Source: an uncultured Actinomycetes bacterium
GTDB taxonomy: Bacteria > Actinomycetota > Thermoleophilia > Gaiellales > JAICJC01
NCBI GenBank assembly: GCA_963695025.1
Contig: CAVOFQ010000003.1
Location: 1,680,336-1,744,335 of the forward strand
Reading direction: 5' to 3'
Length of the DNA stretch: 64,000 nt
Shown here: one piece after another, positions 26,550 to 53,086 of the stretch
Layout: every line of letters begins with the position of its first letter
Position numbering within the stretch: the stretch's first letter is position 1
Notes under the pieces: model-generated
The model's database searches: none
What the model saw: the letters and a program-made list of their open reading frames with translations, nothing else
Told to the model about the DNA's origin: nothing
Program-made: the position numbers and the translations under genes

Positions 26550-27092
26550 TCAGGCCTCGGTCGTCGTGCGCTGGCCGGCGCGGCGGGGCCGTTCCGGTGG
26601 TGGCAGCGTGGTCGCCACCGTCTCGCAGTACGGGCACAGGCGCCAGGTCGGGTCGAGCGGTGCCTTGCAGCGCCGGCAGGCCTGCTTCAGCTTGGTGCCG
26701 CAGTGCGGGCACGAGAGGAAGCTGGCCTCGGAGGGGTTGCGGCAGTACGGGCACACCGAGTCGGCACCGAGGCGCCGCTCCATGGCCCGGATCTCGAGTT
26801 CGCGCTCGTGAACGTCGGCGATGTACTCGGGCGGCCGCAGGATGAGGTAGATGAGCACCCCGACGAACGGGAAGCAGACCGCGGTGGCGACACACACTCC
26901 GACGATGACCGGGTCCTCGATCCTCCGGCGTGCGTCCTTCCAGGTCCAGAACACCGTCGCCCCGTAGAGCGCGATCCCAAACAGCGCCGCCAGCTTGATC
27001 AGCGCCGAGAAGTAGCTCGAGCTGAAGAAGTCCGTGACGCTCGAGAACGCGCCGGAGCTGGTGGTTGAGGCGGATGTGGCGGCGAAAAGCAT
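26550..27092 (-). CDS. membrane protein with C-terminal double zinc ribbon
   Basis: 180 aa. Two hydrophobic helices (WTWKDARRR between them), then four CxxC pairs (CPYC, CPHC, CRRC, CPYC). Confidence 0.7.
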   Translation of the reverse strand: MLFAATSASTTSSGAFSSVTDFFSSSYFSALIKLAALFGIALYGATVFWTWKDARRRIEDPVIVGVCVATAVCFPFVGVLIYLILRPPEYIADVHERELEIRAMERRLGADSVCPYCRNPSEASFLSCPHCGTKLKQACRRCKAPLDPTWRLCPYCETVATTLPPPERPRRAGQRTTTEA

Positions 27093-36313: not shown

Positions 36314-36441
36314 CTGCACTCCTTCGCACCTGCGCGCGGGGCCCACACCCCACGTCCACACGATGGTACGGGCATGCGGCCCGGCGGGCAAGCCCCGTTT
36401 CGGGGGGTGGCTCCTCGCCAACGGAACGATCCAATAGTTGT

Positions 36442-36447
36442 TAGTAT
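36442..36447 (+). promoter_or_regulatory. -10-like TAGTAT placed for a leaderless arsR-family transcript
   Basis: Locally AT-rich CCAATAGTTGTTAGTATGTACCC. TAGTAT is followed by 6 nt and then GTG 36454. Confidence 0.4.
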
Positions 36448-36453
36448 GTACCC

Positions 36454-36801
36454 GTGGCCGGCCAGCTGCTGCATCTCAGCGAACCCGAGGGACAGCGCCT
36501 CCGTGCGGGCAGGCCGGCGGCGGCGGACGCCGAACGGGTGGCGGCCGCCTACGCGGCGCTGGCCGACCCCACCCGGCTCTCGCTCGCCCTGTCGCTCCGC
36601 GGCGACCACGAGCTGTGCGTGTGCGACCTGGCCTGGATCAGCGAGCGCTCCCAGACGCTTGTCTCGCACCACATGAAACAGCTGCGCCAGCAGGGGCTGG
36701 TGAGCGCCCGGAAGCAGGGCAAGATGACCATGTACCGTCTCACCGAGCGCGGCGCGGTGCTGCTCGACGCCGCTGTCTGCGAGCTGGGCTCGGGGCGATG
36801 A
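36454..36801 (+). CDS. ArsR/SmtB family metalloregulator
   Basis: 115 aa. LADPTRLSLALSLRGDHELCVCDLAWISERSQTLVSHHMKQLRQQGLV contains the wHTH and an ELCVCDL metal-site motif. Confidence 0.88.
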   Translation: MAGQLLHLSEPEGQRLRAGRPAAADAERVAAAYAALADPTRLSLALSLRGDHELCVCDLAWISERSQTLVSHHMKQLRQQGLVSARKQGKMTMYRLTERGAVLLDAAVCELGSGR

Positions 36802-38054
36802 GCGACGTCATCTCGCAGGTGGGGATTGCGCTCAAGGACGCATTCCTGATGGCATGGGAGGTGTGGTGGGCGCTGGTGCTGGGCTTCTTCATCTCGGCGG
36901 TCGTCCAGGCATGGGTGCCCCGCGAACGGATCGAGGCCAGGCTCGCCGGCGGCGGTCCCCGGCCGCTGGCATGGGCGACGGGGCTCGGCGCGGCCTCGTC
37001 GTCTTGCTCGTATGCGGCCATCGCGATCGCAAAGAGCCTGTTCCAGAAGGGGGCGTCTGCGTCGGCGGCGATCGCCTTTCAGTTCGCGTCCACCAACCTG
37101 GTGTGGGAGCTCGGCCTGGTGCTGTGGGTGCTGATCGGCTGGCAGTTCACCCTCGCCGAGTACCTCGGCGGCCTGGTCATGATCGTCCTGATGGGGCTCC
37201 TCGTTCGGGTTTTCATCCCCCCCGGGCTCGAGGAGGCGGCCCGCGAGCACGCGCGACAGGCCGGCAGCGGCCATCAGCACCACACGGCCGGCGAGCAGCT
37301 GCGGTGGCGCGAGCGGCTCACCTCGGTGTCCGCGTGGTCGGATGTCGCCCACAACTTCCGCGGCGACTGGCAGATGCTCTACCGCGAGATCGCAGGCGGG
37401 TTCGTCCTGGCCGGGGTCATCGGCCTGCTCGGAAACTCGGCCTTCAACACCCTCTTCGTGCACGACGCCCCCGAGCCGCTGCCCACGATCGAAAACGTGA
37501 TCGTCGGGCCGCTGATCGCCGTGCTCAGCTTCGTGTGCTCGGTCGGAAACGTGCCCCTGGCGGCGGTGCTCTGGTCGGGTGGGATCAGCTTCGCCGGCGT
37601 GCTCGCGTTCATCTTCGCCGACCTCATCGTGCTTCCGATCATCGCGATCTACCGCAAGTACTACGGCTGGCAGTTCACGATCCGGCTGACCGCGCTCATG
37701 TTCGTCACCATGGCCGCGGCCGCGCTTCTGATCGACGGGCTGTTCAGCCTGCTCGGCCTCGTTCCCACCGCCCGCCCGACGCGAGCGGACATCTTCCAGA
37801 CCATCCAGCTGGACTACAAGCTCGTCCTCAACGCGATCGCGCTCCTCCTGTTCGCCGCCCTGTTCGGGCTGACAATGCGTCGCGGGGCCACCGACCCCGT
37901 CTGCCACATGACGGTCGACCGCGCCAAGGCCAAGCGCCTCACCCTCGACGGTGCCACCCACTACTTCTGCTCCGACTCCTGCCTGCAGACGTTCGAGGCC
38001 GCTCATGCGGGCGAGAGGACTCGAACCTCCACGGCCAAGGCCACCGGCTCCTAA
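36798..38054 (+). CDS. PF03773-type permease fused to a C-terminal YHS/TRASH metal-binding domain
   Basis: Internal ATG 36798 of track ORF 36438..38054 (ATGA overlap with the arsR stop). Motifs AASSSCSYAAIAIA and SFVCSVGNVPLAAVLW. C-terminus DPVCHMTVDRAKAKRLTLDGATHYFCSDSCLQTFE. The last approx. 50 nt overlap tRNA-Leu on the other strand. Confidence 0.75.
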   Translation: MSDVISQVGIALKDAFLMAWEVWWALVLGFFISAVVQAWVPRERIEARLAGGGPRPLAWATGLGAASSSCSYAAIAIAKSLFQKGASASAAIAFQFASTNLVWELGLVLWVLIGWQFTLAEYLGGLVMIVLMGLLVRVFIPPGLEEAAREHARQAGSGHQHHTAGEQLRWRERLTSVSAWSDVAHNFRGDWQMLYREIAGGFVLAGVIGLLGNSAFNTLFVHDAPEPLPTIENVIVGPLIAVLSFVCSVGNVPLAAVLWSGGISFAGVLAFIFADLIVLPIIAIYRKYYGWQFTIRLTALMFVTMAAAALLIDGLFSLLGLVPTARPTRADIFQTIQLDYKLVLNAIALLLFAALFGLTMRRGATDPVCHMTVDRAKAKRLTLDGATHYFCSDSCLQTFEAAHAGERTRTSTAKATGS

Positions 38055-38086
38055 GGCCGGCGCGTCTACCAGTTCCGCCACACCCG
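38005..38086 (-). tRNA. tRNA-Leu (anticodon TAG)
   Basis: Reverse complement GCGGGTGTGGCGGAACTGGTAGACGCGCCGGCCTTAGGAGCCGGTGGCCTTGGCCGTGGAGGTTCGAGTCCTCTCGCCCGCA. 7-bp acceptor stem, long variable arm, anticodon loop CTTAGGA. Confidence 0.88.
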
Positions 38087-38114
38087 CGCGTGGGCGAAGT
38101 ATCCTACGACCACG

Positions 38115-38189
38115 CGGTGGCCGTAGCTCAGCTGGTGGTAGCCCCTGGTTGTGGTCCAGGAGGTCGTGGGTTCAAGTCCCACCGGTCAC
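38115..38189 (+). tRNA. tRNA-His (anticodon GTG) with encoded G-1
   Basis: GGTGGCCGTAGCTCAGCTGGTGGTAGCCCCTGGTTGTGGTCCAGGAGGTCGTGGGTTCAAGTCCCACCGGTCACC-C. Anticodon loop TTGTGGT. The extra 5' G pairs with C73. Confidence 0.88.
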
Positions 38190-38199
38190 CCTTTTCACT

Positions 38200-38273
38200 T
38201 GCGCCCGTAGCTCAGGGGATAGAGCAGCAGACTTCGAATCTGCCGGTCGTCCGTTCGAATCGGACCGGGCGCG
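38200..38273 (+). tRNA. tRNA-Arg (anticodon TCG); integration target of the downstream element
   Basis: GCGCCCGTAGCTCAGGGGATAGAGCAGCAGACTTCGAATCTGCCGGTCGTCCGTTCGAATCGGACCGGGCGCG. Anticodon loop CTTCGAA. Confidence 0.9.
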
Positions 38274-38276
38274 TCG
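38230..38276 (+). repeat. attL-type direct repeat (3' part of tRNA-Arg plus 3 nt)
   Basis: 47 nt, GACTTCGAATCTGCCGGTCGTCCGTTCGAATCGGACCGGGCGCGTCG, identical to 46742..46788. Weaker similarity continues for about 20 nt (AACCnGGCGGTTTnCGG). Confidence 0.9.
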
Positions 38277-38374
38277 GTCAACCAGGCGGTTTACGGGCGG
38301 TTCGCCGCGGGGCGATCAGGCAGGGTGGGAACAGAAGTGGGAACACCGCGATCGAAGGAAGAGCCCTAAGCACC

Positions 38375-38722
38375 GTGAGCGCCGGCCCGAGCAGAACCCA
38401 ACTCGCGGCCGCCGTGGCCCAGGCTGCGGAAGCGACGGCTCGCGCGCTCGTGCCGACGATCATCGTGTCCGACCAGGGCCACGGCGTCGAGACGGCGGGT
38501 GTCATCCGGCCCTCGCCGTTCCTGACGCCCGTCGACGGTCCCGATAGGGACGAGATCCTTCGACGCCTGGCGATCGTCGCCACGCTGACCAGCCTGCCTG
38601 TCTGGGCGACCTATCTCGAACAGTTATATGCCGCGTTGGTGCCAAGCGTTGGCCCGGATCTGGCCGTCATCGCCTGCGTCACCGTCTTGGGGTACATCTT
38701 GGCATACGTGTTCCGGCGCTAA
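38375..38722 (+). CDS. hypothetical protein with C-terminal TM helix
   Basis: Tail of artefactual track ORF 36854..38722, starting from GTG 38375. ...LAVIACVTVLGYILAYVFRR. G/C-rich third positions. No family recognised. Confidence 0.35.
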   Translation: MSAGPSRTQLAAAVAQAAEATARALVPTIIVSDQGHGVETAGVIRPSPFLTPVDGPDRDEILRRLAIVATLTSLPVWATYLEQLYAALVPSVGPDLAVIACVTVLGYILAYVFRR

Positions 38723-38961
38723 CCGAGCGTAGGCGGTTTACGACCCGTCGCGGGCGCCGTATTCGCCACGGAATGCCGTGGCCGTGTGGTCTCGGTGTGG
38801 TTTTGCCGATCTGCCGCCACGCGTACCGCCTCGCGTGGCGGCAGGTCGGCGAGTTCGGGGAACTCGGGCAGCGCCCGGATGCGCTCCGCCGCGGCCGCGG
38901 CCGCCTTGACCGCCTGCTCCCACGCAGCTACGGCGCGCTCGTCAACGTCCGGCCCCGCCAT
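38719..38961 (-). CDS. hypothetical protein
   Basis: 80-aa track ORF convergent with the previous one. Codon bias is compatible with coding. No family recognised. Confidence 0.3.
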   Translation of the reverse strand: MAGPDVDERAVAAWEQAVKAAAAAAERIRALPEFPELADLPPREAVRVAADRQNHTETTRPRHSVANTAPATGRKPPTLG

Positions 38962-39092
38962 CCGCGCGGCCGCCCGCTCGATGTCGCCGTCCGGCGCCTA
39001 TCCTCCCAGTCGAAGTGGACGCAGCCCCCTTCGCCGCCGAGCAGCAGGTCCCTGCTTTCTGAGCGTTTCCTAGGCCGCTAGGCTAAGTCCGG

Positions 39093-40058
39093 ATGCTGGT
39101 CTCGCGAAGCAATAGTGGGGCTGCGGCGCTCGAGCCGGTCGATGGTGCTGAAGTCACGCTGGTGGTGGATAACTTCGTCGATCTGTTGATGGCCGGCGTC
39201 GAGGGTGTGCAGCGGTATCTCGCCCGCGATTTCGGTGACCGCGAGCAACTGATCGCCGAGCATGGGTTCGCAGCGCTGCTCACGGTCGATCGCAGCGGCA
39301 AACGAAGCTCGCTTCTCTACGACGCCGGCATGACCCCGGCCGCACTGGGGCGGAACCTGGACGTGCTCGGAGTGGCGGTCAAGAACCTGCGCGCGATCGT
39401 CATCTCCCACGGCCACGCTGATCACCACGGCGGCCTGGAGGGCCTATTCCGACGGTATGGCCGCTGCAGCCTGCCGCTCGTGATCCATCCCGATGCGTGG
39501 CGCGAGCGGAAGCTCGTCTTCCCGACCGGAGCGGAGCTCCGCCTACCGCCCCCCAGCCGAGCCGATCTTGAGCGCGAGGGCCTCGAGCTGGTAGAGGAGC
39601 GGGGGCAAACGCTGCTGCTCGACGCCGCCGTCCTCGTGTCGGGGCAGGTCGAACGGTCGACGCCATTCGAGCAAGGCTTTCCGATTCATTACGCACGCGC
39701 CGGCGGCGACTGGAAACCTGACCCGGTCATTGTCGACGACCAGAACGTGATCGTGAAGGTCAAGGGGAAGGGCCTAGTGATCGTCTCCGGCTGCTCCCAC
39801 GCGGGGGCGGTGAACGTGCTGCGAAACGCGCAGCGCCTCACCGGCGAGCAGCGGATAGCGGGCTTCATCGGCGGTTTCCACCTCACCGGCGGGCTGTTCG
39901 AGCCGATCATTGAGCCGACGGTCGAGGCGTTCTCGCTCGCGCAGGTCGGCCGTGTGCTGCCCGCCCACTGCACCGGCTGGAAGGCAGTCCACACCCTCGC
40001 CCGAGCGATGCCGGCCGCCTTCGTCCAGCCAGCCGTTGGAACCACTGTCAGCTTCTGA
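39093..40058 (+). CDS. MBL-fold metallo-hydrolase
   Basis: 321 aa. IVISHGHADHHGGLEGLF is the HxHxDH motif. ...VIVSGCSHAGAVNVL. Confidence 0.8.
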   Translation: MLVSRSNSGAAALEPVDGAEVTLVVDNFVDLLMAGVEGVQRYLARDFGDREQLIAEHGFAALLTVDRSGKRSSLLYDAGMTPAALGRNLDVLGVAVKNLRAIVISHGHADHHGGLEGLFRRYGRCSLPLVIHPDAWRERKLVFPTGAELRLPPPSRADLEREGLELVEERGQTLLLDAAVLVSGQVERSTPFEQGFPIHYARAGGDWKPDPVIVDDQNVIVKVKGKGLVIVSGCSHAGAVNVLRNAQRLTGEQRIAGFIGGFHLTGGLFEPIIEPTVEAFSLAQVGRVLPAHCTGWKAVHTLARAMPAAFVQPAVGTTVSF

Positions 40059-40506
40059 GGCCCCGTACAGTGCGCTGCTGCCCGCATCGCTTCGCACCTC
40101 GACGGCGAATGCGAGTGGCTCGTCACCAACGGCGTCCTTCCCACCGATTTGGTCACGCGCAACCGCCGGATTGCCGAGGCTGCGCTCCGGCCGTGGACAC
40201 CGGTGTTCACGCACGGCGACCTGCAGATCACCCACGTGTTCGTCGACGGTGACCAGGTTACCGGCGTGATCGACTGGTCCGAGGCAGGCCGGGGCGATGC
40301 CCTGTACGACCTCGCCACCTTGCCGCTCGGACACGAAGAGCACCTAGGGAACGTCGTCGCCGGCTACGGCACTGAAGTCGACCTCGGCGTGATCCGCGCG
40401 TGGTGGTCGTTTGCGAAGCCTGCAGGCGGCCCGCTGGCTGATCGAGCACGGCTTCGACCCCTCCTCGCCAGGCTGCGAGTTCGCCGTCCTGAGATCCCAG
40501 CTGTGA
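40059..40506 (+). pseudogene. C-terminal fragment of an APH/choline-kinase-fold phosphotransferase, also frameshifted
   Basis: Only the catalytic half is present (…PVFTHGDLQITHVFVDGDQVTGVIDWSEAGRGDALYDLATL). There is no N-terminal ATP-binding lobe and it starts right after the MBL stop. Near 40410 the frame shifts to ...LRSLQAARWLIEHGFDPSSPGCEFAVLRSQL*. Confidence 0.65.
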
Positions 40507-40720
40507 GGCCGCCAAGCTCAGGCTCGAGCGGTTCCTGCGCGCTCGTGGCTACGAGTCGGCGGCTGATCGCGTGGCGTGAGTAGTGGGGGTCGGTGGTGTC
40601 GGGCACGACCCCTGGTGACTGCCGACCCCTGGGCGAGGGTACGTCGCGCCGATTGAGGGCGACTGCGCTCCCGTGTTCGGCGGGCTGCTGGGCTGCTTCC
40701 GTATACGGTAGGGTCGCGAC

Positions 40721-42143
40721 ATGGTGGCCGATCTGCTGCAGCGAAGCGCCAGCGACCAGGCCGCGATGGTGCGGGCGGGTGAGGTCCGGGCCCGCGAGTT
40801 GGTCGAAGCGGCGCTGGGCGCGATCGAGCGCCGGAACCCCGGTCTGAACGCGTTTGTGACGGTGTGTGGCGAACGGGCGCTGGCAGAGGCTGACACGGTG
40901 GGGGCGGGCGATCCGCGTCCGCTGTGCGGGGTACCGGTCGGGATCAAGGATCTGCTGTCGGCCACCGAAGGAGTACCGACCACCGAGGGCAGCCTCGGCT
41001 TCCCGGATTGGGTCGCCGCCCACGACTCGGCGCACGTGCGGCGGCTGCGTGAGGCCGGGGCGATCATTGTCGGCAAGACCAATACCCCGGAGCTGGGGTT
41101 GCGGCCAGTGACCGAGAATCGCCGCTTCGGCGCGACCCGGAACCCGTGGAACACCGAGCTGTCGGCCGGAGGCTCGTCGGGCGGGAGCGCTGCGGCGGTG
41201 GCGTCGGGGATGGTGGCACTGGCCGACGGCAGCGACCTCGGCGGGTCGATCCGGATCCCGGCGTCGTGTTGTGGGCTGGTCGGGCTCAAGCCGAGCCTGG
41301 GACGGGTGTCGATGGCGCCCGACTACGGCGATGTGGCGGCCGGCATGCCTGCCGACGGCGTGCTCACCCGGACGGTCATGGATACCGCCGTTGCACTCGA
41401 TGCGATCGCCGGCTACGAGTTCGGTGACCGGCACCGGGCGTGGACGCCTCGACAATCGTTTGTGGAGCTGGCAAGGGCCGACCCGGGCCGGCTTCGGGTG
41501 CGGGTGTGCGTGCGCGCACCACACGGCATCGAGGTCGACCCTGAGCCGGCGGCGGCGGCACGCGCGGCGGGCGAACTGCTGGCGTCGCTCGGCCACGAGG
41601 TCGAGGAGGTCGACTTCGGTTGGGAGGATGAGGCGTTCCCGTCCGCGTGGGGCACGTTCATGACCGGAACCGGACAACACCTGATCCGGATCGTCGAGCG
41701 CCTGCACGGGGGACGCGTCGACCCCGACCAACTGGAGCCGGCGACACGAGCCTGGCTGGTCGATTCCCTGCCGGTGCCACTGGTCGACTACCTGGAGGCC
41801 GGCGAGCAGCTGTTCCGATTCAGCCGGAAAGTGATCGACCAATGGCGTGGTGACCACGGTGCTGGTGACTCCGACACTCACGCGGCTGCCGGCGCCGGTC
41901 GGCGGCATCAGGTCGGCGGCCGGCGTGACCGACGACGCCAGCCGCTTCAGCGCCCTGGTGCGGATCTGGAACGTCACCGGCCAACCAGCGATCAGCCTTC
42001 CGCTCGCCCGCACCGACGACGGCCTCCCGATCGGCGTCCAACTGGTCGCCGCGCCCGATCGCGACGACGTGCTGATCAGTCTCGCAGCCCAACTCGAGGC
42101 AGCCGTCGGCTGGCCGGTCGTTGCCACAACGGAACACCCCTAA
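40721..42143 (+). pseudogene. amidase-signature family amidase, frameshifted near 41846
   Basis: Track ORF 40721..42241 carries GVPVGIKDL...GGSSGGSAAAVASGMVALADGSDLGGSIRIPASCCG. After ...VIDQW the sense continues in track ORF 41847..42143 (VVTTVLVTPTLTRLPAPVGG...GQPAISLPLARTDDGLPIGVQLVAAP). Confidence 0.75.
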
Positions 42144-42174
42144 CGTCGCGACGCCCTCCCGGAAAGGAGAAGCC

Positions 42175-42454
42175 ATGTACCTCGGCATCTACGAGATTGA
42201 CGGTGACCCAAACGAGCTGCTCGCCGCCTACGATCGGTTGATCGCGATGATGCCCGAGGGCCAGGTTGTGTTTCACGCCTTGCGCCATCCGTGAGAACGG
42301 CATGACCATCTACGACGCCTGCCCAACTAAGGAGGTGTTCGAGCAGTTCTCGACCTCCCCGGAGTTTCGAGGCGCAACCGAGGCTGCAGGCCTCCCCTGG
42401 CCCAGCCGGATCGAGGGACTGCAGCTTCACGCCGTACGCGCCAAAGGTGTCTAA
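42175..42454 (+). pseudogene. small (approx. 92 aa) protein, frameshifted near 42280
   Basis: ATG 42175 after GGAAAGGAGAAG: MYLGIYEIDGDPNELLAAYDRLIAMMPEGQVVFHA, then a stop. The +1 frame (track ORF 42266..42454) continues CAIRENGMTIYDACPTKEVFEQFSTSPEFRGATEAAGLPWPSRIEGLQLHAV. An extra T at 42280/42281 explains the shift. Confidence 0.6.
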
Positions 42455-42919
42455 GAGGCCTGGTTCGCCGTTCGCGAGTTTGGCGCACCCGCTCGGCATG
42501 TAGCGCGGCTCAGACGGACCCCTTGCCGCGCCATCGTGGCCGGGGGTAGATTCGGGACTGGCCCGCCGGGCGCGGCTTTCCGATTCGGGCCCGGCTCGTG
42601 GTGTGGTTTGTGAGCCGTTGCAGGCATGGCCGCTCCTCGTACCGCTGGCGCCGAGGTGCGCGAGCTCGTCGGCGTGCTCACTGCTTCGGGTGCAGGACCA
42701 GGTCGCGCAGTCGCGGGTCGAGCAGTTCCTGCGTGGCCGGGGGAACACACCCCGGCGCGAAGCTGTCGCCCTCGACGGCGGCAAGAGTGTGGTGGGCAGC
42801 CAAGCGGGGGGAGGCGGGGGTCACTCTGGTGGGGGGTCTTGCGCGCTGTGGCGCAGGGTATGGCCGCCCGTGGGGTCTTGTTAGGTGACAGGAATCCTCG
42901 GCTCCAGGAGCGCCCGTCG

Positions 42920-44008
42920 ATGTTTATTGCACGGTCTATGCGGTCTGAACCCGCGCTCGCGGCTTTGTCGGTCAGGCGTTGGCGCCGCATCGGGCTGGCG
43001 TCGGCGTTTGACCGTTTCCGTCCCGCCGGGCGCGGCCAGGCCGGGCAGACGCTGCCGTTGATCTGTCTGTTCTCGATGACTCTGCTCGGGTTCGTCGGCT
43101 TGGTGATCGACGTGAGCAGCACGTATGTTCAGCGACAAGAGATCCAGAACGCGGCCGATGCCGCTGCGCTGGCGGGCGCGGCGGCGATTCCCACCGGGAC
43201 ATACCAGACGGCAGCCCAAGAGATCGCAACCAAGAATGACGTTACCGGCGACCACGTCGCGGTTAGCTTCAACAACACCGACTCGGTGACCGTCACCGTC
43301 ACCCGGTCTGCCCCCACCTACTTTCTGCGCATGTTCGACATGAACTCGATCTCGGTGTCCGCCACCGCCACGGCCAGGATCGAGGCGATCGGTCAAATCC
43401 AGGGGCACGTGTCCCCCTACGTGGTTACCCAGCAGGCATATGCGAACGGCACCGGAACAACGCTCTTTACGGAGAACGGACCCGGCTCCTACGGCACCGT
43501 CGACCTGCCCACTTCGGACAACACCTCCGGTGGCAGTTGCACCGGCAACACCAACAAAGGCACACCCACAAACATCGGCAACGAGCTCAGCGACCAACTC
43601 GCGACCGGGTCGCTCCTGGTCGGAGGCTGCCTGTCGGTAAAAGGCGGCGCATCCCAGCCATCGGCGAACATCGTCAACCAGATCCCGCCGGCCAACAACG
43701 CCATGAGCCAAGACCTGCAAAGCCAGGGCAACGGCCAATACCAAGTCATCCCCCAACCATGGGACGACGCCAACGGCCTGCCCCCACGGCTGATGTACAT
43801 CCCCATCGTCCAATCGCTGCCCGGCGGCAACGGCAACGCCACCATCACCAGCTTCGCCTGGTTCTACCTGACCAGCGCCACCGGCGGCGGCAGCGGCCTC
43901 ACCATCACCGGACAATGGGTCACCGTCGACCTACCCGCCACAGGACAAACCACCACCTACCAACCCGGCGTCCAAGGCCAAATCCTCGCCATCGAACTCA
44001 CCCAATAA
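42920..44008 (+). CDS. TadG-like (Tad_N / Flp pilus-assembly TadE/G-like N-terminal domain) protein, paralog 1
   Basis: Part of track ORF 42626..44008, starting at ATG 42920 (start uncertain). GQTLPLICLFSMTLLGFVGLVIDVSSTYVQRQEIQNAADAAALAGA is the Tad_N signature. APTYFLRMF, LVGGCL and the C-terminal ...LTQ are shared with paralog 2. Confidence 0.75.
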   Translation: MFIARSMRSEPALAALSVRRWRRIGLASAFDRFRPAGRGQAGQTLPLICLFSMTLLGFVGLVIDVSSTYVQRQEIQNAADAAALAGAAAIPTGTYQTAAQEIATKNDVTGDHVAVSFNNTDSVTVTVTRSAPTYFLRMFDMNSISVSATATARIEAIGQIQGHVSPYVVTQQAYANGTGTTLFTENGPGSYGTVDLPTSDNTSGGSCTGNTNKGTPTNIGNELSDQLATGSLLVGGCLSVKGGASQPSANIVNQIPPANNAMSQDLQSQGNGQYQVIPQPWDDANGLPPRLMYIPIVQSLPGGNGNATITSFAWFYLTSATGGGSGLTITGQWVTVDLPATGQTTTYQPGVQGQILAIELTQ

Positions 44009-44064
44009 CCCCTGCCCACCCATCCACCCCAAAACAAACCACATCGTGCTAGAAGGAGAACCAC

Positions 44065-44223
44065 ATGTCACACACGCTCGCCAAACTACACGCCGAGGCC
44101 GGCCAGACGATGGCCGAATACGCCGTCGTCCTGGGCGTCATCACCATCGCCGTAGTAGTCACCCTGGGATTGCTCAGCACCGCCATCCAGGGCACCCTCA
44201 CCAACGTCATCGCCGCCCTCTAG
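44065..44223 (+). CDS. flp: Flp family type IVb prepilin (52 aa)
   Basis: Not in ORF track (below the length cutoff; the overlapping track ORF 44046..44243 is in the wrong frame). GAAGGAGAA lies 5 nt upstream of the ATG. MSHTLAKLHAEAG|QTMAEYAVVLGVITIAVVVTLGLLSTAIQGTLTNVIAAL contains the G/xxxxEY processing motif followed by a hydrophobic helix. Confidence 0.85.
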   Translation: MSHTLAKLHAEAGQTMAEYAVVLGVITIAVVVTLGLLSTAIQGTLTNVIAAL

Positions 44224-45087
44224 ACCGCCGCGACGGGGTATAGAACGTTCGGGGTGGCCGGCGCACGTCCTTCGGTCGAGCGGCCGGCCGTCGCCACCTA
44301 TGCGGTTGGCCGCTTGAGCGCGACTGCCAGGAAGCCAAGCGGTGGAGGGTTACGGGAGCGTCGCCGAGGTACTCTCGGCGGCACGGGAAGTCGAGCGGGC
44401 CGCCTGCTCATTGACGTGTCAGGTGGCCGCGTTCTCCATCTAGGCGGATGCGGGTATTGGTGGGTGGGGTGGCCCGGCCTGCAGGCAGCGCCTCCGCCGC
44501 CATCTCGCGGTCGCCGTCGACCTCGGCGGGGTCGGCGAGCAGTCCGACCAGGACGAAGCGCCATTCAGGCTGGGTGCAGCGGCCCGAGCATCGCTGCAAG
44601 CCGAACATGAGTTCCGACTCATACCACCGGTCAAGCAGCGCCGCGCGCCTGAGCGGATCGTCGTGCTGTTGTCGCTCGCAGGGCTCGTCACGCTGGTCGG
44701 GGTGAGGCGCCCCGCATCGTGGGCAGGGGAAGCTGCCAATCGGCGACGATCGTTTTGTAAAGGACCGGTCTCAGATTGCCGGATCTCGTCACTGACGTTG
44801 CCGGTCGCGCCGCCTTGCTAGTCGCAACGATGCTCCATGCCCAGCCCGCGGACTGTTGCTGCTCAACTATCATGATCAACTCTTTCGGGGGCGGGGGGTA
44901 GCGCGCTTCCGCGAAGCTTGTACGCTGGATGTATGTCACCGAGTCGGGACCCATCAGGGCCGATTCGGTGTACTCGCATCCTTTAAGACACACCAAGGGC
45001 TCGATACGGAAGGGCCGTCGTCCCCCGAGGCAGTACTTCCCGCGATTGCGTATTTCGCTCGAGCCACCCGACTCCAAAGACATCCCC

Positions 45088-46071
45088 GTGGGCGGACTCC
45101 AACAAGCGCGTGGCCAGACGCTACCCGTGATCGTGCTTTTCATGGTGAGCATTCTCGGCATAGCTGGTCTTACGATTGATGCAGGCAGTTTGCTCCAAGC
45201 CAAGCAAACCACTCAGGTGAATGCGGATGCGGCTGCGCTCGCGGTTGCACAGGGCATGGTCAACGGTCAGTGGTCAACCTACGCGGCGCACAACTTCGGC
45301 GTCAACAACAAGACCACCGAGTCCGGCAGCTACTCGCTGACAACGTACCTCGCGGCAAACGACTCGGTCACCGCCACAGTCGTCTACCAAGCACCCACCT
45401 ACTTCAGCAAGATGTTCGGGTTCACCTCCGTACACGAGCAATCAGTTGCGCGGGCAACGGTGCAAAGCGTGCACTCATTCAGCGGGTCAAAAATGCCGTT
45501 CGCGCTCTTCAACAACTGTGTCCCGCCGATCGGCCAGACCGTCGTTGTCTACGGCGGCTCGAGTTGCGGATCGTCATCCTCAAACGTAGGCTCGATCCAA
45601 CTGCCGGCCTCCGGCCAGACCGCAGGCTCGTGCGACTCAAAGGGCGTTCCAAACTACACGCCCGTTGGCAACGGCAACGAGTTCGACAAGATCATGAACG
45701 GAACAGTTGCGACCGGCAACGTGCTCGTCGGCGGGTGCCTCGCACAGACGCAGACGGGCAAGGGCAGCGGTCCCGGCAACGACCTGTTCGCCGACTACCC
45801 CAACACGTCGCTCTGGCCCCCTGGCCGCGCTGATCCCGGTTGTGCAACAGGCCGCCGGCCAAGGCACCAAGGGCCATACACCGTGACCGCGTTTGAATGG
45901 ATCAGCATCACCGGGTGTTCGGGGGGCACCGGCCCAGTCTCCTGCAGCGGAGTCAGCGGCAAAGAGATCGACGGCCTACGACTCGGGATCTACGACGGAA
46001 CATCCTGCGCCGGGATCGTGACCGGCCCATACATCCCAGGCTATGCAAACAGCCTCGGCCTCACACAGTAG
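45088..46071 (+). CDS. TadG-like protein, paralog 2 (start uncertain; about 17 internal codons appear out of frame)
   Basis: Track ORF 44929..46071; GTG 45088 is my tentative start. GQTLPVIVLFMVSILGIAGLTIDAGSLLQAKQTTQVNADAAALAVA, APTYFSKMF, LVGGCL, ending ...LGLTQ. Between about 45829 and 45880 the +1 frame (ALIPVVQQAAGQGTKGH) aligns with paralog 1 (MYIPIVQSLPGGNGNAT), whereas the ORF frame (ADPGCATGRRPRHQGP) does not. Confidence 0.6.
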   Translation: MGGLQQARGQTLPVIVLFMVSILGIAGLTIDAGSLLQAKQTTQVNADAAALAVAQGMVNGQWSTYAAHNFGVNNKTTESGSYSLTTYLAANDSVTATVVYQAPTYFSKMFGFTSVHEQSVARATVQSVHSFSGSKMPFALFNNCVPPIGQTVVVYGGSSCGSSSSNVGSIQLPASGQTAGSCDSKGVPNYTPVGNGNEFDKIMNGTVATGNVLVGGCLAQTQTGKGSGPGNDLFADYPNTSLWPPGRADPGCATGRRPRHQGPYTVTAFEWISITGCSGGTGPVSCSGVSGKEIDGLRLGIYDGTSCAGIVTGPYIPGYANSLGLTQ

Positions 46072-46082
46072 AAAGGACTGGA

Positions 46083-46268
46083 ATGAAAGTCTGCTCGAAC
46101 GACAACTGCAGCGCAACCGTATGGGACGACAACCAGATCTACTGCTCAGGTTCCTGCCAGATCATGCACCTCCGCAACATGTCCGAAGCAGACGCCCGCA
46201 TCGCGAAGCGCGGCGCGATCGAGGGTGGACTTCGGCAGCGACTCAGCCTCCCGCCCTTCAATTCCTAG
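46083..46268 (+). CDS. small four-Cys (zinc-ribbon-like) protein
   Basis: ATG 46083 after AAAGGA, within track ORF 45897..46268. MKVCSNDNCSATVWDDNQIYCSGSCQIMHLRNMSEADARIAKRG... Cys spacing is CxxxxC...CxxxC. Confidence 0.5.
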   Translation: MKVCSNDNCSATVWDDNQIYCSGSCQIMHLRNMSEADARIAKRGAIEGGLRQRLSLPPFNS

Positions 46269-46326
46269 GCCAAACCGTGGGCGCGCGGGGCGGCCGGGCC
46301 ATGTGATGTTCCGACGGAGGGGATGA

Positions 46327-46692
46327 CCTGCGCGCTCGGTCGACTCCGACCCGGTATTCACGAGCTCGACCGACGCGATGCTCGACCCGAGCAACCTGGC
46401 TGCGCGAGTCGTCAAGCCCGCGGCTCGAGCGGCCCGGCGTCGAGTGGGCGGCGTTCCACACGCTGCGCCATACCTGCGCGACGGAGCTCTTCCGTCGCGG
46501 CCTGAACGCCAAGCAGGTGCAGCTATGGTCGGCCACCACTCCCCCGCCTTCACGCTCCCCGTGTACGTGCATGTGCTGTCCGACGAGTTGCCGGCGTCAC
46601 CGTTCGAGCCGGAGGGTGGGAATCAGGTGGGAACGAGACCGACCGAGGCCGGGCGAGAAGCCTCGTCGATCGTCGCGGCCGAAACCGCCTGA
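46327..46692 (+). pseudogene. tyrosine recombinase/integrase remnant (C-terminal catalytic part only, internally frame-shifted twice)
   Basis: Frame of track ORF 46378..46692 reads ...DPVFTSSTDAMLDPSNLAARVVKPAARAA. The next frame reads PGVEWAAFHTLRHTCATELFRRGLNAKQVQLW. The first frame then resumes GHHSPAFTLPVYVHVLSDELP (HxLRH box and catalytic Tyr). There is no N-terminal core-binding or SAM-like domain upstream. Confidence 0.8.
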
Positions 46693-46741
46693 TAGCAGCA
46701 GGTTTCCAGCCTGCCCGAACAAGGGCGAGACAGCGCCGAGC

Positions 46742-46788
46742 GACTTCGAATCTGCCGGTCGTCCGTTCGAATCGGACCGGGCGCGTCG
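46742..46788 (+). repeat. attR-type direct repeat (displaced 3' fragment of tRNA-Arg)
   Basis: Identical to 38230..38276. It lacks the 5' half of the tRNA, so it is not a functional tRNA. Confidence 0.9.
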
Positions 46789-46997
46789 CCTAACCGGGCG
46801 GTTTCCGGCGACCACACATTGGCACGCTTCGTTGTTCTCAACCTGTGAGCCGGGTGCGGGGTGGTGCGGCTGATCGCTTCCTTTTGACGACAAAAATCAT
46901 TCTCTAGGCAACCAAATGTACGATCGCGCGCATGCCACGCCGACCAACCGCAGCCCACTGCATCTGCGCCCACCCGATCGACCCGTTGGCTCGGCGG

Positions 46998-48429
46998 ATG
47001 ACCGCTGCCCGGAGACGGCGAGTCGCGGCCGTGGCGCTCATGGTTGGGTTGTCGGCAGGGTGTGTCGGAGGGTCGACGGGGACCGAATCGACGATGCGCG
47101 GGACTCGCACGGAGGCGGCGATGACGAGCCCCGCGGGGATCCACAGGATCCGGCATGTGATCATCATCACGCAAGAGAACCGTTCGTTTGACTCCTACTT
47201 CGGCACCTACCCGGGCGCTGACGGGATCCCGATGCGCAACGGGCGACCGGCGGTGTGCATTCCCGATCCGCTCCGTGGTCGGTGCCAGCGTCCATACCAC
47301 GACCGGGCGCTGGTAAACGGCGGAGGGCCCGCACGGGCCGAGATCAGCTGTGAGGGATATCGGTGGTGGTCGGATGAAGGGGTTCCTGCGCCAGGCTGAA
47401 CAGGGCCGGCCAGGCTGCCTGCGCTCGTTTGGGCCGCTCAACCCGCTCTGCAGCCTGTCGCGGCTGCATCCCGACGTGATGGGCTATCACACCGCCGCGG
47501 AGATCCCCAACTACTGGGCATATGCACGCCGCTTCGTGCTGCAAGACCACATGTTCTCCCCGAACCTGGGCTGGAGCCTCCCCGCCCACCTGTACGGAGT
47601 ATCGGCGTGGTCGGCCACGTGCAAGAACCGCTCGCCCATGAGTTGCACCACTGCCCTCGGGATCCGGCGGGGCGGCAGGTCGGCGTTCACCGCGCTGCCG
47701 AGTACGCCATTCCGCTGGACGGACCTCACCTACGTACTCCACCGGGCGCATGTCAGCTGGCGCTACTACGTCCACGCCGGCCGCCTGCCCGACTGCGCCT
47801 CCGGCGCCCAGAAATGCCACCTCCCCCGACTGTCCGCCAAGACACCCGGAATCTGGAACCCTCTGCCGAGGTTCACGACCGTCCGCAAAGACCACCAATT
47901 GGGGGACATCCAGGGTGTACGCCGATTCTTCACCGCCGCTCGCAGGGGCGCCCTCCCTGCCGTTGCATGGATCGTCCCCGACGAGAAGCACAGCGAGCAC
48001 CCACCCGCAAACATCGCCGTCGGCCAAGCATGGGTAACCCACATCATCAACGCCGTCATGCGAAGCTCCGACTGGAACTCCACCGCCATCTTCCTCACCT
48101 GGGACGACTGGGGCGGCTTCTACGATCACGTTCGCCCACCCATCGTCGACCGCTACGGCTACGGACTGCGCGTCCCCGGCCTTGTCATCAGCCCCTATGC
48201 CCGCCAGGGCTACGTCGACCATCAAACCCTCAGCTTCGACGCCTACCTCAAATTCATCGAAGACGACTTCCTCCACGGCCAACGCCTCAACCCCAGAACC
48301 GACGGCCGACCCGACTCCCGACCCACCATCCGCGAAAACGCTCCCATCCTCGGCAACCTCACCCACGACTTCAACTTCCACCAACCCCCCCAACCGCCCT
48401 TCATCCTCCCACAGTACCCACACATCTAA
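46998..48429 (+). pseudogene. phosphoesterase-family (PLC/AcpA-like, PF04185-type) lipoprotein, frameshifted near 47325
   Basis: ATG 46998: MTAARRRRVAAVALMVGLSAGC (lipobox), then IRHVIIITQENRSFDSYFGTYPGADGIP (track ORF 46932..47399). The sense continues in track ORF 47350..48429 ([21 protein letters not shown]...[28 protein letters not shown]...[11 protein letters not shown]...[13 protein letters not shown]). Confidence 0.75.
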
Positions 48430-48780
48430 CGGCCAGGCATCGCCGCCCTGGCGAAACCAATATCACCATGCCTCACGGCGGACGTTCGTTGGGAACCTCG
48501 AGACCCGCCCGTGAGCTCGGCGACGATCGTCGCCGCCGGCATGGTCGCGTGCACGTCGCCGACTGAGGTTCGGGCATACATCGGCATCGCGGAGATCTCG
48601 CCATGCGCGGCGCCGGTCGGTGGTACCGGCGCGAACGGGGGAAGGCTGCGCTCAGCGACCGTGGCCACGACCTCCCTGTGAATGACGCGCGCCGCCGAGC
48701 CGATGCTGCCCGAGGCGACGCCGGGCAGATCGACCGCGGAGATCGTGTGCGCGCTGGGCCGAACTCGACGGTCGGATTGC
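48430..48780 (-). pseudogene. possible relic of an acetamidase/formamidase-like gene
   Basis: The minus frame reads ...ISAVDLPGVASGSIGSAARVIHREVVATVAERSLPPFAPVPPTGAAHGEISAMPMYARTSVGDVHATMPAATIVAELTGG. The GDxHA...E context is reminiscent of the FmdA/AmdA family. There is no start and no N-terminal part. Weak call. Confidence 0.25.
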
Positions 48781-49605
48781 CTACCGGCGGCCAGCGACGG
48801 CGAGTATGGCGTTGGTGCTGTCGTGCACGAGGCTCGGGGAGGGTTGTCCGCCGGGGAGTTCGACGACGAAGGAGGTCGTGCCAGGGAGTCGATGGTTCTC
48901 CCACCCGGTGACGCTTCCGGGATACCGCGGCAGTCGTGCTGCCGGCAGGTCGACCAGCCGGGCGAATCGGCGCTCGATCGCCACGGCTCCTCCCCCGAGG
49001 TCGACGACCGCGAGCGCCTGATGAAACCAGATCGAAAGCGTGGGCCGCACGTGGAGGATCAGGTTCGCCACGGCTCGGCTCTCAGGCTCGCTGAGGGGGC
49101 CGCGGCCGGAGTAGTGGACATCCCCGGGGCGGCCGATCCGGTGCCAACGGTAGGGAAAGTTCCGATTCAGGTCGACTTGATCACCGTTTTGGCGGCGGCG
49201 CGTCGCCAGGCCGTCTGGATTCAGCACCGGCACAAGCCAGAATGCCACCTCAGGTGAGAGCCGGCTGGTCATCAGCGTTCGCACAACCGCGATCCCGCCG
49301 GGCTCGTCTCCATGGATACAGCCGACCACGAGCACCCGATGAGACGCGTCCGGATCTCCTGATGTGTACAGCCACACCACTCGACCATCGACGGACCTGG
49401 CCAAGACTTCCCGCGCGCGGATCGGCGCCTCATCCTCCGACCGCGCCCGCCGTGCGGATCTGAGCGGAACAACGCGCGCGGTCGATCGCGGTGCGCTTCC
49501 GGTCGGCGCGCCGGCGGGCGCAGACGCGCAGCCGGCCCCCACTAGGAACACAAACACCGCCAGCACGCCGCATATGACGAACGGGTCCGACGCCGGCTGC
49601 CGCAT
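48781..49605 (-). CDS. M14-family zinc carboxypeptidase-like lipoprotein
   Basis: Track ORF 48781..49698. I start at ATG 49605 (MRQPASDPFVICGVLAVFVFLVGAGC, lipobox). VVGCIHGDEPGG, VPVLNPDG, VDLNRNFPYRW motifs. Confidence 0.8.
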   Translation of the reverse strand: MRQPASDPFVICGVLAVFVFLVGAGCASAPAGAPTGSAPRSTARVVPLRSARRARSEDEAPIRAREVLARSVDGRVVWLYTSGDPDASHRVLVVGCIHGDEPGGIAVVRTLMTSRLSPEVAFWLVPVLNPDGLATRRRQNGDQVDLNRNFPYRWHRIGRPGDVHYSGRGPLSEPESRAVANLILHVRPTLSIWFHQALAVVDLGGGAVAIERRFARLVDLPAARLPRYPGSVTGWENHRLPGTTSFVVELPGGQPSPSLVHDSTNAILAVAGRR

Positions 49606-50378: not shown

Positions 50379-50621
50379 GGCCACTTCGTCGTGTCCGGCT
50401 CGGCGCCGCGCGCCGATCAACGGGGGATCACAGGCGGCCCATTCGGGGGATTGGCTTTCCCGGGCTGTGTCCGAATTTGTGAGTAGTGAGCGCGGCCGCC
50501 GGGGGGACGGCGTCGCGCCGAAACCTTCCTCGGAGGCACGGACGTGGCGCACCTCTCCGTCGAGCACTCGAACCGAATCGTTGCCTTGGCCGTCACGAGA
50601 GGACGACGCACTCGCGGGTCG

Positions 50622-51888
50622 ATGGCGGGTCAGGTGTTGCCGCTGGTGGTCGTGTTCATGTTCACGCTTCTGATCTTTCGCCGGCTTGGTGATCGACCTG
50701 GGCAATGCCTATCGGGTGCAGCAGGCGCTGCAGGCCTCGGCGGACGCCTCGGCCGCCGCTGGAGCCGGCCAGTTGACCCTGACATACCCGCCGCAGGTCG
50801 CGACGGCCACGTCGCAGGCGCAGAAGTACGGGTCGCAGTCGGGCGGCCAGAACCCGATCACCGGCGTCCCCGCCGGCAACGTCACCCAGACGGTCACCGT
50901 CACATGTGCGCCTCAGGCCGGCTACAACTGCAACTCGGGGTACGCCAACACGGTCACGGTCAACGAGACGGCCAGCGTGCCCACCTACTCTGCTCAAGCT
51001 GCTCGGGTTCAGCACCATCAGCCTCAACGCCCATGCGCAGGCCTGTTCACCGTGCGGTGGGGTGCCGCTGGACGTGATGATCGTGCTTGACCGCACGGGG
51101 TCGATGGCCGACAACAACAAGCTCAGCCAGGCGAAGGCGGGCATCACCGCGTTCATGAAGACCATGGACCCCACGCTTGACAACGTCGGGCTGGCCGTCC
51201 TCCCGCCGGCACCGAGCGTGGCCGCGCCCTGTGTCGATGTCGACCCGTACTTCAACGACCGTAAACGCCGAGGGCCAGTACGACGGCAGCGGGGGCACCT
51301 ACAGCCTCCCCAACGCCGCATACACACTGGTGCCGCTGTCGAACACCTATGCGTCGAGCGTCGGCAACCTCAACAACGGATCGCCCCTGATATCGACCAT
51401 CAACTGCGTCCAGGCCGGCGGGGGCACGGCCTACGCCGAGGCAATCGACGCAGCATACGCCGAACTGCAAAAGGACGGCCGCCCCAAGACGCAGAAGGTG
51501 ATCGTGTTCCTCTCCGACGGCGCGGCCAACGACGCCCCCATCTCGCTGCCGGCCACCTCGCCGTATCGAACGAACCCCTGCGGCCAAGGCGTCACCAGCG
51601 CCGGGATCGCCAAGGCCGCCAAGGTACTCGTGTACTCGATCGCCTATACCGCCAACGGAGACAACTGCTACGCCGCGGTGGGCGCGAACGTGGGCGGCAA
51701 GATCGTCACCACCTACGACGGAACCCTCGAGTCGCCGGCCATCGCCGCACAGCCAGGCCCTCCAGAGCATCGCCAGCACCGGCAACGGCACCTACTTCTA
51801 CGACCTCCCCAATCCCACGTCGCTGACCGGCATCTTCCAGCAAATCGCGGCAGACATCACCGGCGGCACCGCACGCATCGTCCAATAG
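50622..51888 (+). pseudogene. TadG-like N-terminal domain + von Willebrand A domain protein, four successive +1 frame disruptions
   Basis: MAGQVLPLVVVFMFTLLIF (frame 0). Shift near 50678: AGLVIDLGNAYRVQQALQASADASAAAGAG...NETASVPTY (frame 1). Shift near 50990: LLKLLGFSTISLNAHAQACSPCGGVPLDVMIVLDRTGSMAD (MIDAS)...DPYFND (frame 2). Shift near 51260: VNAEGQYDGSGG...GGGTAYAEAID...KVIVFLSDGAAND...TLESPAIAA (frame 0). Shift near 51750: SQALQSIASTGNGTYFYDLPNPTSLTGIFQQIAADITGGTARIVQ* (frame 1). Confidence 0.75.
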
Positions 51889-53086
51889 TCAGCACCCCGT
51901 AGCGTTCCCGGACCGCCACCCTCCTCCTTCGCGGGCGGGCCGGACCACTCGGGGGCGACCTTCGTGCTGTCGCTCGTGCTCTTCCCGACGTGATGGGCGT
52001 GGCCATCCTCCGCTATCGCCTGTACGACATGCGCCCGTCGCCGAGCGAAAGACCGCGCCCAGAACGGCGATCCCACCGAGGGTAGAGCAACGCGAGTACG
52101 GCGACCAGGCAGGTGTACACCAGGGGGTTGCGGATCACGACGTCTTGCGGCCCTCAAATCACGACGCGTGAGCGCCCGCCGCCGCGAGCTCCAGATGATC
52201 GTGGATTGCGCCCGCGACGAGATCGCGGCAGGCGCTGCTGTGCCCGTTCGCCAGCTCGAGGGCGGGTGTGAACACGGCACGGCGGGCGACTCTGCGATGG
52301 AGCTGAAGCGTCGCGGCGATGGCGCCGTGCATGCGCACGGGATCGCCCTCGGTCGCGCCCCGGACGATCCGGGCGACCAGAGCGGACGGAGTGAATTCGA
52401 TCTCGGGTGGTGAGGTCACTCCCGTCCAGTCTGGCGGCAATCGCCGCCGGAGAATCTGGGAATTGCGGTAACCCGGCCCACCAATCGTGGTATCTCCACT
52501 CGCCAGGATGCGCCGCGCACTCGAAGTCGCACAATCGCGCCGACGTGGCATGCGTCCTCACGAACGGAGGGTCGTGTGTCGGCGCCGGACGTCCAGCACA
52601 AACCAGGTCGGGCCGCTCGCGCGCCATCCAGAGAGCCCGTCGGTGCCGGCCATCGTGACCTCGACGCGGTCGCCGGCCCCGGTCTGCGATCCTACCGTCA
52701 CCCCTGCATACGGCCCCTGGGATCAGCCGACGGCGGGAACCCTGCCCCACGCGGCGGTGACCGCGATGTCGGCCATCGCCTGCGAGCGCTCGCGCGCATC
52801 CTCCGGAGTGTGCACCCGCACCGAGTGGGGCGTGTCGCCCATCGGCGAGACGACCTCGCCGTAGAGCCCGGCGGCAGCACTGCGAGCGACATCCTCGGAC
52901 GATCCCGCCGCGACCGTCACCCACCGGTTCGGGCGGAAGATGTTGAAGCGCGCCTGGGCGAACACCACATCGTCAGAGGCATCCATATCGGGGCTCACCG
53001 TAGCGACGAACCCCCGTGCTGTCGACCCCCTTTACAAACCTCTCCAACAAAATTCTCAACTCACATGGCACACGTACACTGGTTCC

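Follow-up and report, generated by a model that had tools for sequence, protein, structure and literature searches.

A probable remnant of a tyrosine-integrase element at a tRNA-Arg(TCG) gene of an uncultured Thermoleophilia bacterium

A tRNA-Arg gene, its displaced 3' fragment and an integrase remnant

We analysed a stretch of 64,000 nucleotides (nt) from an uncultured bacterium of the Gaiellales (Thermoleophilia), positions 1,680,336 to 1,744,335 of contig CAVOFQ010000003.1 in assembly GCA_963695025.1; the whole stretch is called the window below, and positions are counted from its first letter. The subject is a candidate integrative element of about 8.5 kb between 38230 and 46788, bounded by a 47-nt direct repeat of the 3' part of a tRNA-Arg(TCG) gene and carrying the remains of a tyrosine integrase at its right-hand end. 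The tRNA genes were called by ARAGORN and Rfam RF00005. The features at the two ends are as follows (att, attachment site).

38201..38273, plus strand: tRNA-Arg(TCG), intact, the probable integration target (Rfam RF00005, 66.2 bits, model positions 1-71 of 71)
38230..38276, plus strand: attL core, left copy of the perfect 47-nt direct repeat
38277..38296, plus strand: segment adjoining the attL core, GTCAACCAGGCGGTTTACGG, which resembles the 20 nt to the right of attR and the equivalent segment of the relative locus L091
46205..46692, plus strand: tyrosine-integrase remnant, C-terminal part only, with +1 C near 46432, -1 near 46525 and a 15-codon gap
46742..46788, plus strand: attR core, right 47-nt copy, the displaced 3' fragment of tRNA-Arg

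The tRNA-Arg(TCG) gene, whose limits were placed at 38200-38275 by ARAGORN, has its 3' part inside attL. The segments 38230-38276 and 46742-46788 are identical at 47 of 47 positions, and the 47-mer starts at tRNA position 30, within the anticodon stem, and ends 3 nt beyond the discriminator base, i.e., it consists of the last 44 nt of tRNA-Arg plus 3 nt. A search tolerating 3 mismatches found no other copy in the window and none in 100 shuffles; a fuzzy search (up to 5 errors) gave no third or degenerate tRNA-Arg fragment in the window. Upstream of 46742 there was no match to the 5' half of the tRNA, and neither ARAGORN nor Rfam called a tRNA there. Beyond the perfect repeat, AACCAGGCGGTTTACGG and AACCGGGCGGTTTCCGG agree at 15 of 17 positions and the ungapped similarity reaches 67 nt at 93% identity; by alignment, L091 carries AACCAGGC at an offset equal to that of the window segment 38277-38296. 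An earlier description of this DNA (the sequence-only reading below) had proposed a perfect 47-nt repeat that begins in the anticodon stem and extends 3 nt beyond the tRNA, a second copy devoid of the 5' tRNA half, and about 20 further similar nt, all of which were borne out. It had also held that a generic repeat found at many loci would speak against integration, and the 47-mer is present only twice in the window. A 10-mer just past the attL core, CAGGCGGTTT (38283-38292), is the reverse complement of AAACCGCCTG (46682-46691), which lies 51 nt upstream of the attR core. Both orientations are single-copy in the window, and in a reconstructed attP the two would form an inverted repeat around the core.

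The integrase stop codon (46690-46692) lies 49 nt before the right repeat. In our own translation HTLRHT is encoded at 46457-46474 and GHHSPAFTLPVYVHVL at 46531-46578 in another frame, so that the HxxR and GHHS...Y motifs do not share a reading frame. The HxxR segment is thrown out of frame near 46432 by a surplus C in GCGGCCCGGC, and a missing base near 46525 (TGGTCGGCC instead of the expected TGGCTCGGC) restores the frame. The frame-corrected reconstruction of 136 amino acids (aa) found 185 homologues with a best E value of 5.7e-49, nearly all of those listed being annotated PF00589; the 104-aa integrase open reading frame (ORF) had no Pfam match. The best 120 of the 185 homologues are all 237 aa or shorter. 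A naturally short integrase family of about 230 aa was considered and rejected, since an exhaustive search with the homologue P0162 gave relatives of 409-422 aa. The short homologues are contig-end fragments or split ORFs, as in locus L106, where a 300-aa N-terminal ORF stands directly before the 105-aa match.

The full-length relatives carry a SAM-like core-binding domain preceded by an N-terminal domain, and match the PHROG 1 integrase over nearly the whole length. Compared with one of them, P0242 (412 aa), only residues ∼283-381 were matched in the window, and a weaker integrase trace, with the 15-codon gap, can be followed back to ∼46205; the remnant is about the last third of a ∼410-aa protein. 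It lacks a complete R-K-H-R-H-Y catalytic domain in one frame with a core-binding domain, the box I Arg region, and the N-terminal integrase domains. Because the ORF of an upstream gene, TadG-like 2, ends at 46071, there is no room for the missing ∼250 residues. We concluded that the integrase is dead by real deletions, beyond single-base indels. The sequence-only reading had placed the C-terminal catalytic part of a tyrosine recombinase just inside the right repeat, as the motifs and the E value confirm, and had called it truncated and frameshifted, which agrees with the matched residues, the +1 and -1 changes and the 15-codon gap. A 61-aa ORF at 46083-46268 (plus strand), between TadG-like 2 and the remnant and overlapping the upstream end of the latter, shows a CxxxxC...CxxxC pattern (MKVCSNDNCS...CSGSCQ); its sole Pfam match, zf-CGNR, was non-significant (E = 0.08).

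GTGGGAA doublets and the architecture of related loci

Next to each core lies a short doublet repeat that connects the two ends with the integrase family.

38322..38345, plus strand: candidate P' arm-type integrase sites, AGGGTGGGAACAGAAGTGGGAAC; GTGGGAA doublet at 38325-38343, 12-nt spacing, 48 nt after the attL core
46613..46635, plus strand: candidate P arm-type integrase sites, AGGGTGGGAATCAGGTGGGAAC; GTGGGAA doublet at 46616-46633, 11-nt spacing, 108 nt before the attR core

On its plus strand the window holds five copies of GTGGGAA. Four of them make up the two doublets, and the right-hand doublet sits within the 3' end of the integrase. The pattern GTGGGAAN(4-5)GTGGGAA was found only at these two places in the window, with 0 expected. 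Among the 106 loci collected, the doublet was present in L091 only, at two equivalent places; this locus encodes P0122, the closest integrase relative (71% aa identity to the remnant). On L091 a tRNA-Met(CAT) gene at 3548-3624 serves as attL, its 3' part is repeated over at least 43 nt, from the anticodon loop on, at 8234-8277 (contig end), and an integrase without its N-terminal part ends just upstream of this copy. The L091 doublets (3674-3692 and 8107-8124) are located ∼50 nt after and 109 nt before the cores, and the P' arms of the window and L091 align gap-free from the tRNA end to the doublet. Two further relatives have a similar order of parts. In L092 the 3' half of tRNA-Lys(TTT) follows an intact 412-aa integrase; two HTH_17 genes precede the integrase, and another part of the contig carries a TGGGAAC triplet. 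The order in L106 is HTH_17 gene, integrase, three GGGGAA repeats (11-nt spacing) and the 3' half of tRNA-Arg(TCT). The search for intact relatives with the integrase fragment, suggested by the sequence-only reading, led to L092 (intact, 412 aa) and to L106 (split ORF), which share the architecture.

The same doublets, distances and order of integrase, repeat and tRNA fragment in the relatives indicate that the 47-mers are attL and attR of one integrase family, and this family appears to switch its tRNA target yet keep the arm layout. In phage lambda and mycobacteriophage L5, the integrases use short direct arm repeats tens to ∼100 nt away from the core. The placement in the window is alike, and by this analogy the GTGGGAA doublets are probably arm-type sites to which the N-terminal domain of the integrase would bind. 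Motif, GTGGGAA(C/T), and spacing are peculiar to the integrase family of the window. L091 3548-8277 was noted as a second decayed element of the same family, ∼4.7 kb long and on another contig of a metagenome-assembled genome (MAG); its cargo (an AAA_22/HTH_77 regulator and YggT) differs from that of the window. In IMG/VR there were no matches to the att core and no relatives of the integrase P0242. A doublet scan of the same collection was tried as an element finder and abandoned as too unspecific, with at least 120 matches, mostly in tandem repeats.

We considered whether the repeat might be something other than an att pair, namely a duplicated piece of a tRNA, or a repeat that is generic or arose by chance, beside an unrelated integrase fragment. 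The sole point in its favour is the absence of an observed empty site; the shuffles gave no extra copy (0/100), the repeat has exactly the extent typical of integration into tRNA genes (tDNA), and the architecture of integrase, arm repeat and tRNA fragment recurs in three relatives at other tRNAs, which makes this explanation highly improbable. We concluded that the segment is very probably the remnant of a tyrosine-integrase element that was inserted in tRNA-Arg(TCG) and then degraded. The central proposal of the sequence-only reading, the remnant of a site-specific integrative element in tRNA-Arg, is upheld by the repeat, the integrase remnant, the architecture of the relatives and the lack of backbone genes described below.

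Content of the interior and signs of decay

The interior of the element holds the following genes and gene fragments.

39093..40058, plus strand: metallo-beta-lactamase (MBL)-fold metallo-hydrolase, intact, 321 aa (Pfam PF00753; identical protein on record)
40149..40583, plus strand: aminoglycoside-phosphotransferase (APH)-type kinase, C-terminal fragment (PF01636 profile positions 159-226 of 239 only)
40721..42143, plus strand: amidase pseudogene, PF01425 split over two frames (2-nt deletion between 41854 and 41883)
42121..42454, plus strand: small ORF, ∼92 aa, split by an apparent +1 T near 42275 (two overlapping ORFs join)
42920..44008, plus strand: TadG-like protein 1, intact, 362 aa (Pfam Tad and Tad_C; identical protein on record)
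44065..44223, plus strand: Flp-type pilin, intact, 52 aa (weak Pfam Flp_Fap match)
44929..46071, plus strand: TadG-like protein 2, longest ORF 380 aa (PF13400; identical ORF called in the source genome)

No recognisable gene was found in 38277-39092 by Pfam or PHROGs. The MBL gene has 93% nt identity to a chromosomal gene of Gaiellales MAGs, where the homologue lies between a GST-like gene and ychF, and the homology is confined to 39095-40077. One such homologue, L101 4059-5040, was seen in a housekeeping neighbourhood (GST-like gene, MBL, ychF, ftsH); the homology breaks off no more than ∼20 nt from either end of the gene, and other sequence takes the place of the first 7 codons. The N-terminal ∼150 residues of the APH-type kinase would not fit into the space upstream, which is limited by the end of the MBL gene at 40058. 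The amidase relatives P0507, P0509 and P0511 read through the lesion, with 86-94% aa identity over the two matched pieces. For the small ORF, which had no Pfam match, the apparent frameshift was deduced from the reading frames only.

TadG-like 1 is a member of a large conserved Thermoleophilia family: it had 316 homologues, and the 120 listed are 285-399 aa long (mostly 311-362) with up to 92% identity. Together with Flp it forms a two-gene module, 42650-44211, which is found at 87% nt identity in L096 (1945-3498) and L098 (523-2076), with no tRNA or integrase near the module in these two loci. TadG-like 1 alone was also observed, in yet other contexts, in L093 and L094. TadG-like 2 shares 32% identity with TadG-like 1 (blastp), and its true start is probably later, as the Tad domain begins at residue 62. 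The idea that TadG-like genes are typical cargo of the element family was rejected: the relatives of TadG-like 1 and Flp occur in unrelated contexts without integrase or tRNA, and the cargo of L091 is different. A search for relatives through the TadG-like proteins had been advised by the sequence-only reading; for TadG-like 1 it returned homologues in non-element contexts.

Among the plausible ORFs of 38277-46741, Pfam and PHROGs gave no replication, transfer, capsid, terminase or other virion gene, in keeping with the sequence-only reading, which had reported no replication, transfer or capsid genes. None of the gene-free gaps inside the element (∼815, 465 and 870 nt) could accommodate an intact tra gene. 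The same reading had counted at least five frame disruptions in the cargo; this was too high, as three were verified there (APH, amidase and small ORF), with at least three more in the integrase. As judged by these homologies, the interior is a mosaic of gene-sized pieces, some intact and some broken. In composition the right half of the element (42-47 kb) stands out, with a GC content of 0.64 versus ∼0.69 and a tetranucleotide z of ∼3, and the model of GC content at third codon positions (GC3) detected no host-type signal over 42078-47372. Another compositional outlier, at ∼10000-15000 (tetranucleotide z up to 2.8, GC 0.73), is unrelated to the element.

Frame switches were located by a GC3 hidden-Markov model and inspection; two calls, 54483-54703 and 26547-27054, were artefacts and were discarded. 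Frameshifts were also detected outside the element. The right-flank phosphoesterase (phospholipase C family, PF04185; 46932-48429, plus strand) has +1 C at 47328 in GGGCCC compared with L081 and L082, so the first gene outside the element is frameshifted as well. A third TadG-like gene (50544-51900, plus strand), also outside, has frameshifts near 50655, 50990 and 51260; its product has an N-terminal Tad domain followed by sequence that looks like a von Willebrand A (vWA) domain. On the minus strand, an HD-GYP/LuxR-type regulator is split at ∼6291, where a G5 run halfway through the GYP motif carries one additional G, and a Wzz/tyrosine-kinase-like gene is split at ∼61966; these two breaks are either consensus errors or true pseudogenes. 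With such frameshifts outside the element too, single-base frameshifts are weak evidence for element-specific decay. The case for decay comes from the truncations of the integrase and APH genes, the 2-nt amidase deletion and the missing backbone.

The decay could mostly be a sequencing artefact, with indels of a long-read metagenome assembly making the element look more degraded than it is. In line with this, flanking genes are frameshifted too, some in homopolymers (G5 at ∼6291, CCC at 47328), the nearest relatives come from assemblies with long-read-style contig_N names (ERZ250395xx), and L106 also has a split integrase. Such indels do not explain why the integrase lacks about two thirds and the APH gene half of its length, with no space left for these parts, nor do they account for the 2-nt deletion in the amidase, the 15-codon gap and the one integrase lesion that is a -1 outside homopolymers. 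An artefact on this scale is therefore improbable.

Flanks, integration history and relation to known elements

The tRNA-Arg(TCG) gene belongs to a small tRNA cluster, the other genes of which provide the context on the left.

38006..38087, minus strand: tRNA-Leu(TAG), first gene of the cluster (ARAGORN; Rfam 56.6 bits)
38117..38191, plus strand: tRNA-His(GTG) (ARAGORN; Rfam)

A metagenome scan with the 44-nt core gave two contigs, L085 and L086, which carry the same Leu(-)/His/Arg cluster at 86% nt identity, and a scan for tRNA-Arg plus the downstream motif gave no match. The uninterrupted clusters of L085 and L086 argue against a duplicated tRNA array without uninterrupted relatives, which the sequence-only reading had named as a ground for abandoning its proposal. 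In L086 the homology resumes 2.4 kb past tRNA-Arg, at window positions 52708-53125; the window has 14.4 kb there, which fits a hypervariable locus. On the left side, the flanking permease returned 80 Solirubrobacterales loci, and in the 12 of these examined by blastn the permease gene alone aligned; in none of the 20 loci scanned for tRNAs was there a tRNA cluster just downstream of the permease. As permease and cluster are not syntenic in these loci, the DNA to the left of the cluster looks rearranged too. The permease/YHS-domain ORF (36438-38054, plus strand) runs 48 nt into the opposite-strand tRNA-Leu gene. On the right side, the closest contigs with relatives of the phosphoesterase have 87-89% nt identity.

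The 14.4 kb in the window compared with 2.4 kb in L086, from tRNA-Arg to the homologue of 52708-53125, may also reflect serial tandem integration, in which 46789 to ∼52.7 kb would be an older related island and the 47-nt pair the youngest insertion. The region 46.9-51.9 kb contains the frameshifted phosphoesterase and the TadG-like/vWA gene with its three frameshifts, and the 20 nt that follow attR contain TCGNNNAACC(A/G)GGC, at an offset equal to that in the P' arms of the window and L091. This similarity extends over ∼17 nt only and is partly like the native downstream sequence of L086, which is itself a different species (80-86% nt identity). No further tRNA-Arg fragment or integrase relic was found to the right, and 46849-49039 is syntenic with L081. 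We regard serial integration as possible, though rather unlikely.

Several observations weigh against an integrated remnant as the explanation of the segment. The empty site, tRNA-Arg joined to 46789 onward, was not found in any collection scanned. For this check, proposed by the sequence-only reading, L085 and L086 do supply an intact and uninterrupted tRNA-Arg, but the junction to 46789 is missing and their downstream DNA differs from that of the window. L081-L083 carry no tRNA upstream of the phosphoesterase, and their homology begins only at 46849-46860, with other genes upstream. The left half of the element (38.3-42 kb) is compositionally host-like, so that the k-mer deviation which the same reading had asked for was seen in the right half and not in the left. 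The right doublet lies in coding sequence (EGGNQVGT) that is conserved at the protein level in P0122 too, and binding of the integrase to the doublets is a prediction. Some of the single-base lesions may be consensus errors or part of a genome-wide pseudogenisation. Much of the interior may not be original cargo, as the MBL gene and the TadG-like/Flp module stand in ordinary chromosomal contexts in relatives.

For the favoured reading, an integrated and then degraded element, we propose the following history, in which the order of events is inferred. A mobile element with a tyrosine integrase of ∼410 aa and attP beside the integrase 3' end would have recombined with the 3' part of tRNA-Arg(TCG). 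The crossover would fall within the 47 nt common to attP and attB, most likely in the anticodon loop. The element-borne copy would then complete the tRNA (attL, 38230-38276) and the original 3' part would be displaced 8.5 kb downstream (attR, 46742-46788). The attB junction predicted for an empty site would read ...GAGCAGCA, the 47-mer and CCTAACCGGGCGGTTTCCGG... Later losses would have stripped the integrase of its first two thirds, and the element of an excisionase, if it had one, and of every gene for replication, transfer or virions. The remaining patchwork would be the intact MBL hydrolase and TadG-like/Flp pair together with the broken APH half, amidase and small ORF. We infer that the element has lost its mobility and is unable to excise by itself.

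The ends of tDNA islands are marked by a regenerated tDNA and a displaced fragment (PMC4383910). Like the tyrosine-integrase islands in tRNA or tmRNA genes that Islander finds, the segment has an intact tRNA at one end and, at the other, a displaced 3' fragment in the same orientation with the integrase beside it, and the identical stretch begins at the anticodon stem/loop and ends shortly beyond the 3' end. The elements that Islander looks for, an intact tRNA, a displaced direct-repeat fragment and a tyrosine integrase, were all found, the last as a remnant only. Unlike in such islands, the integrase is a pseudogene without about two thirds of its length, and the empty site is undocumented. 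In the sublocation classes of Williams (2002), the insertion would reportedly be assigned to the anticodon-loop class. The actinomycete integrative and conjugative elements (AICEs) pSAM2 and SLP1 share with the segment an actinobacterial host, a tyrosine integrase and an att site in the 3' part of a tRNA; furthermore, intact relatives of the window integrase have adjoining HTH_17 (excisionase-type) genes. The host differs, being of the Thermoleophilia (Solirubrobacterales/Gaiellales-like) and not of the Actinomycetes proper. No replication initiator of the RepSA, RepAM or prim-pol type had a Pfam match in the plausible ORFs of 38277-46741, and neither an FtsK/SpoIIIE-type Tra protein nor Rep was matched in the element ORFs or the loci of the short relatives. 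In the absence of a Rep or Tra gene, the element was not filed as an AICE. Likewise, no structural PHROGs match (capsid, portal, terminase or tail) was obtained, and the element was not filed as a prophage for lack of structural genes.

The cis-mobilizable elements (CIMEs) are elements without integration and transfer genes that retain attL and attR (PMC6323972), and the segment resembles those of the Streptococcus ICESt1/ICESt3 type in that it keeps both arm doublets and the core at 47 of 47 positions, its integrase is dead and tra genes are missing. Lineage and integrase family are unrelated, and the likeness to the definition is descriptive. It raises the alternative that the segment is a non-autonomous but still mobile island, excised by a related full-length integrase and excisionase elsewhere in the 2.1-Mb genome or carried by an adjacent element. 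The identical attL and attR and the intact GTGGGAA doublets would allow this, and integrases of this family, with several tRNA specificities among them, are frequent in these lineages. The 64-kb window contains no second integrase relative and there is no sign of excision. The observed members of the family have different tRNA cores, so that a paralogue resident in the genome would not necessarily act on tRNA-Arg(TCG). We consider a mobile island of this kind unlikely. The same low probability is given to a CIME-like passenger at a tRNA-Arg accretion hot spot, which a resident full-length integrase of the same Thermoleophilia family would excise or co-mobilise and which would shuttle chromosomal pieces (TadG-like/Flp, MBL) between species.

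As an integrated and degraded remnant, the element is an ordinary genomic fossil of a known kind, here in a poorly studied lineage of soil actinobacteria. It warns against taking single-base frameshifts in such assemblies for decay specific to the element, and it shows that the DNA downstream of the Leu/His/Arg tRNA cluster is hypervariable among relatives. Of similarly modest value, it documents a tyrosine-integrase family in uncultured Thermoleophilia with a constant attP layout (integrase 3' end, GTGGGAA-type doublet, ∼108 nt, tRNA 3' part, ∼48 nt, second doublet) and changing tRNA targets, those seen being Arg-TCG, Met-CAT, Lys-TTT and Arg-TCT. To our knowledge there are no genetic tools for this uncultured Thermoleophilia lineage. 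Intact members of the family, e.g., P0242, could seed integrative vectors for it.

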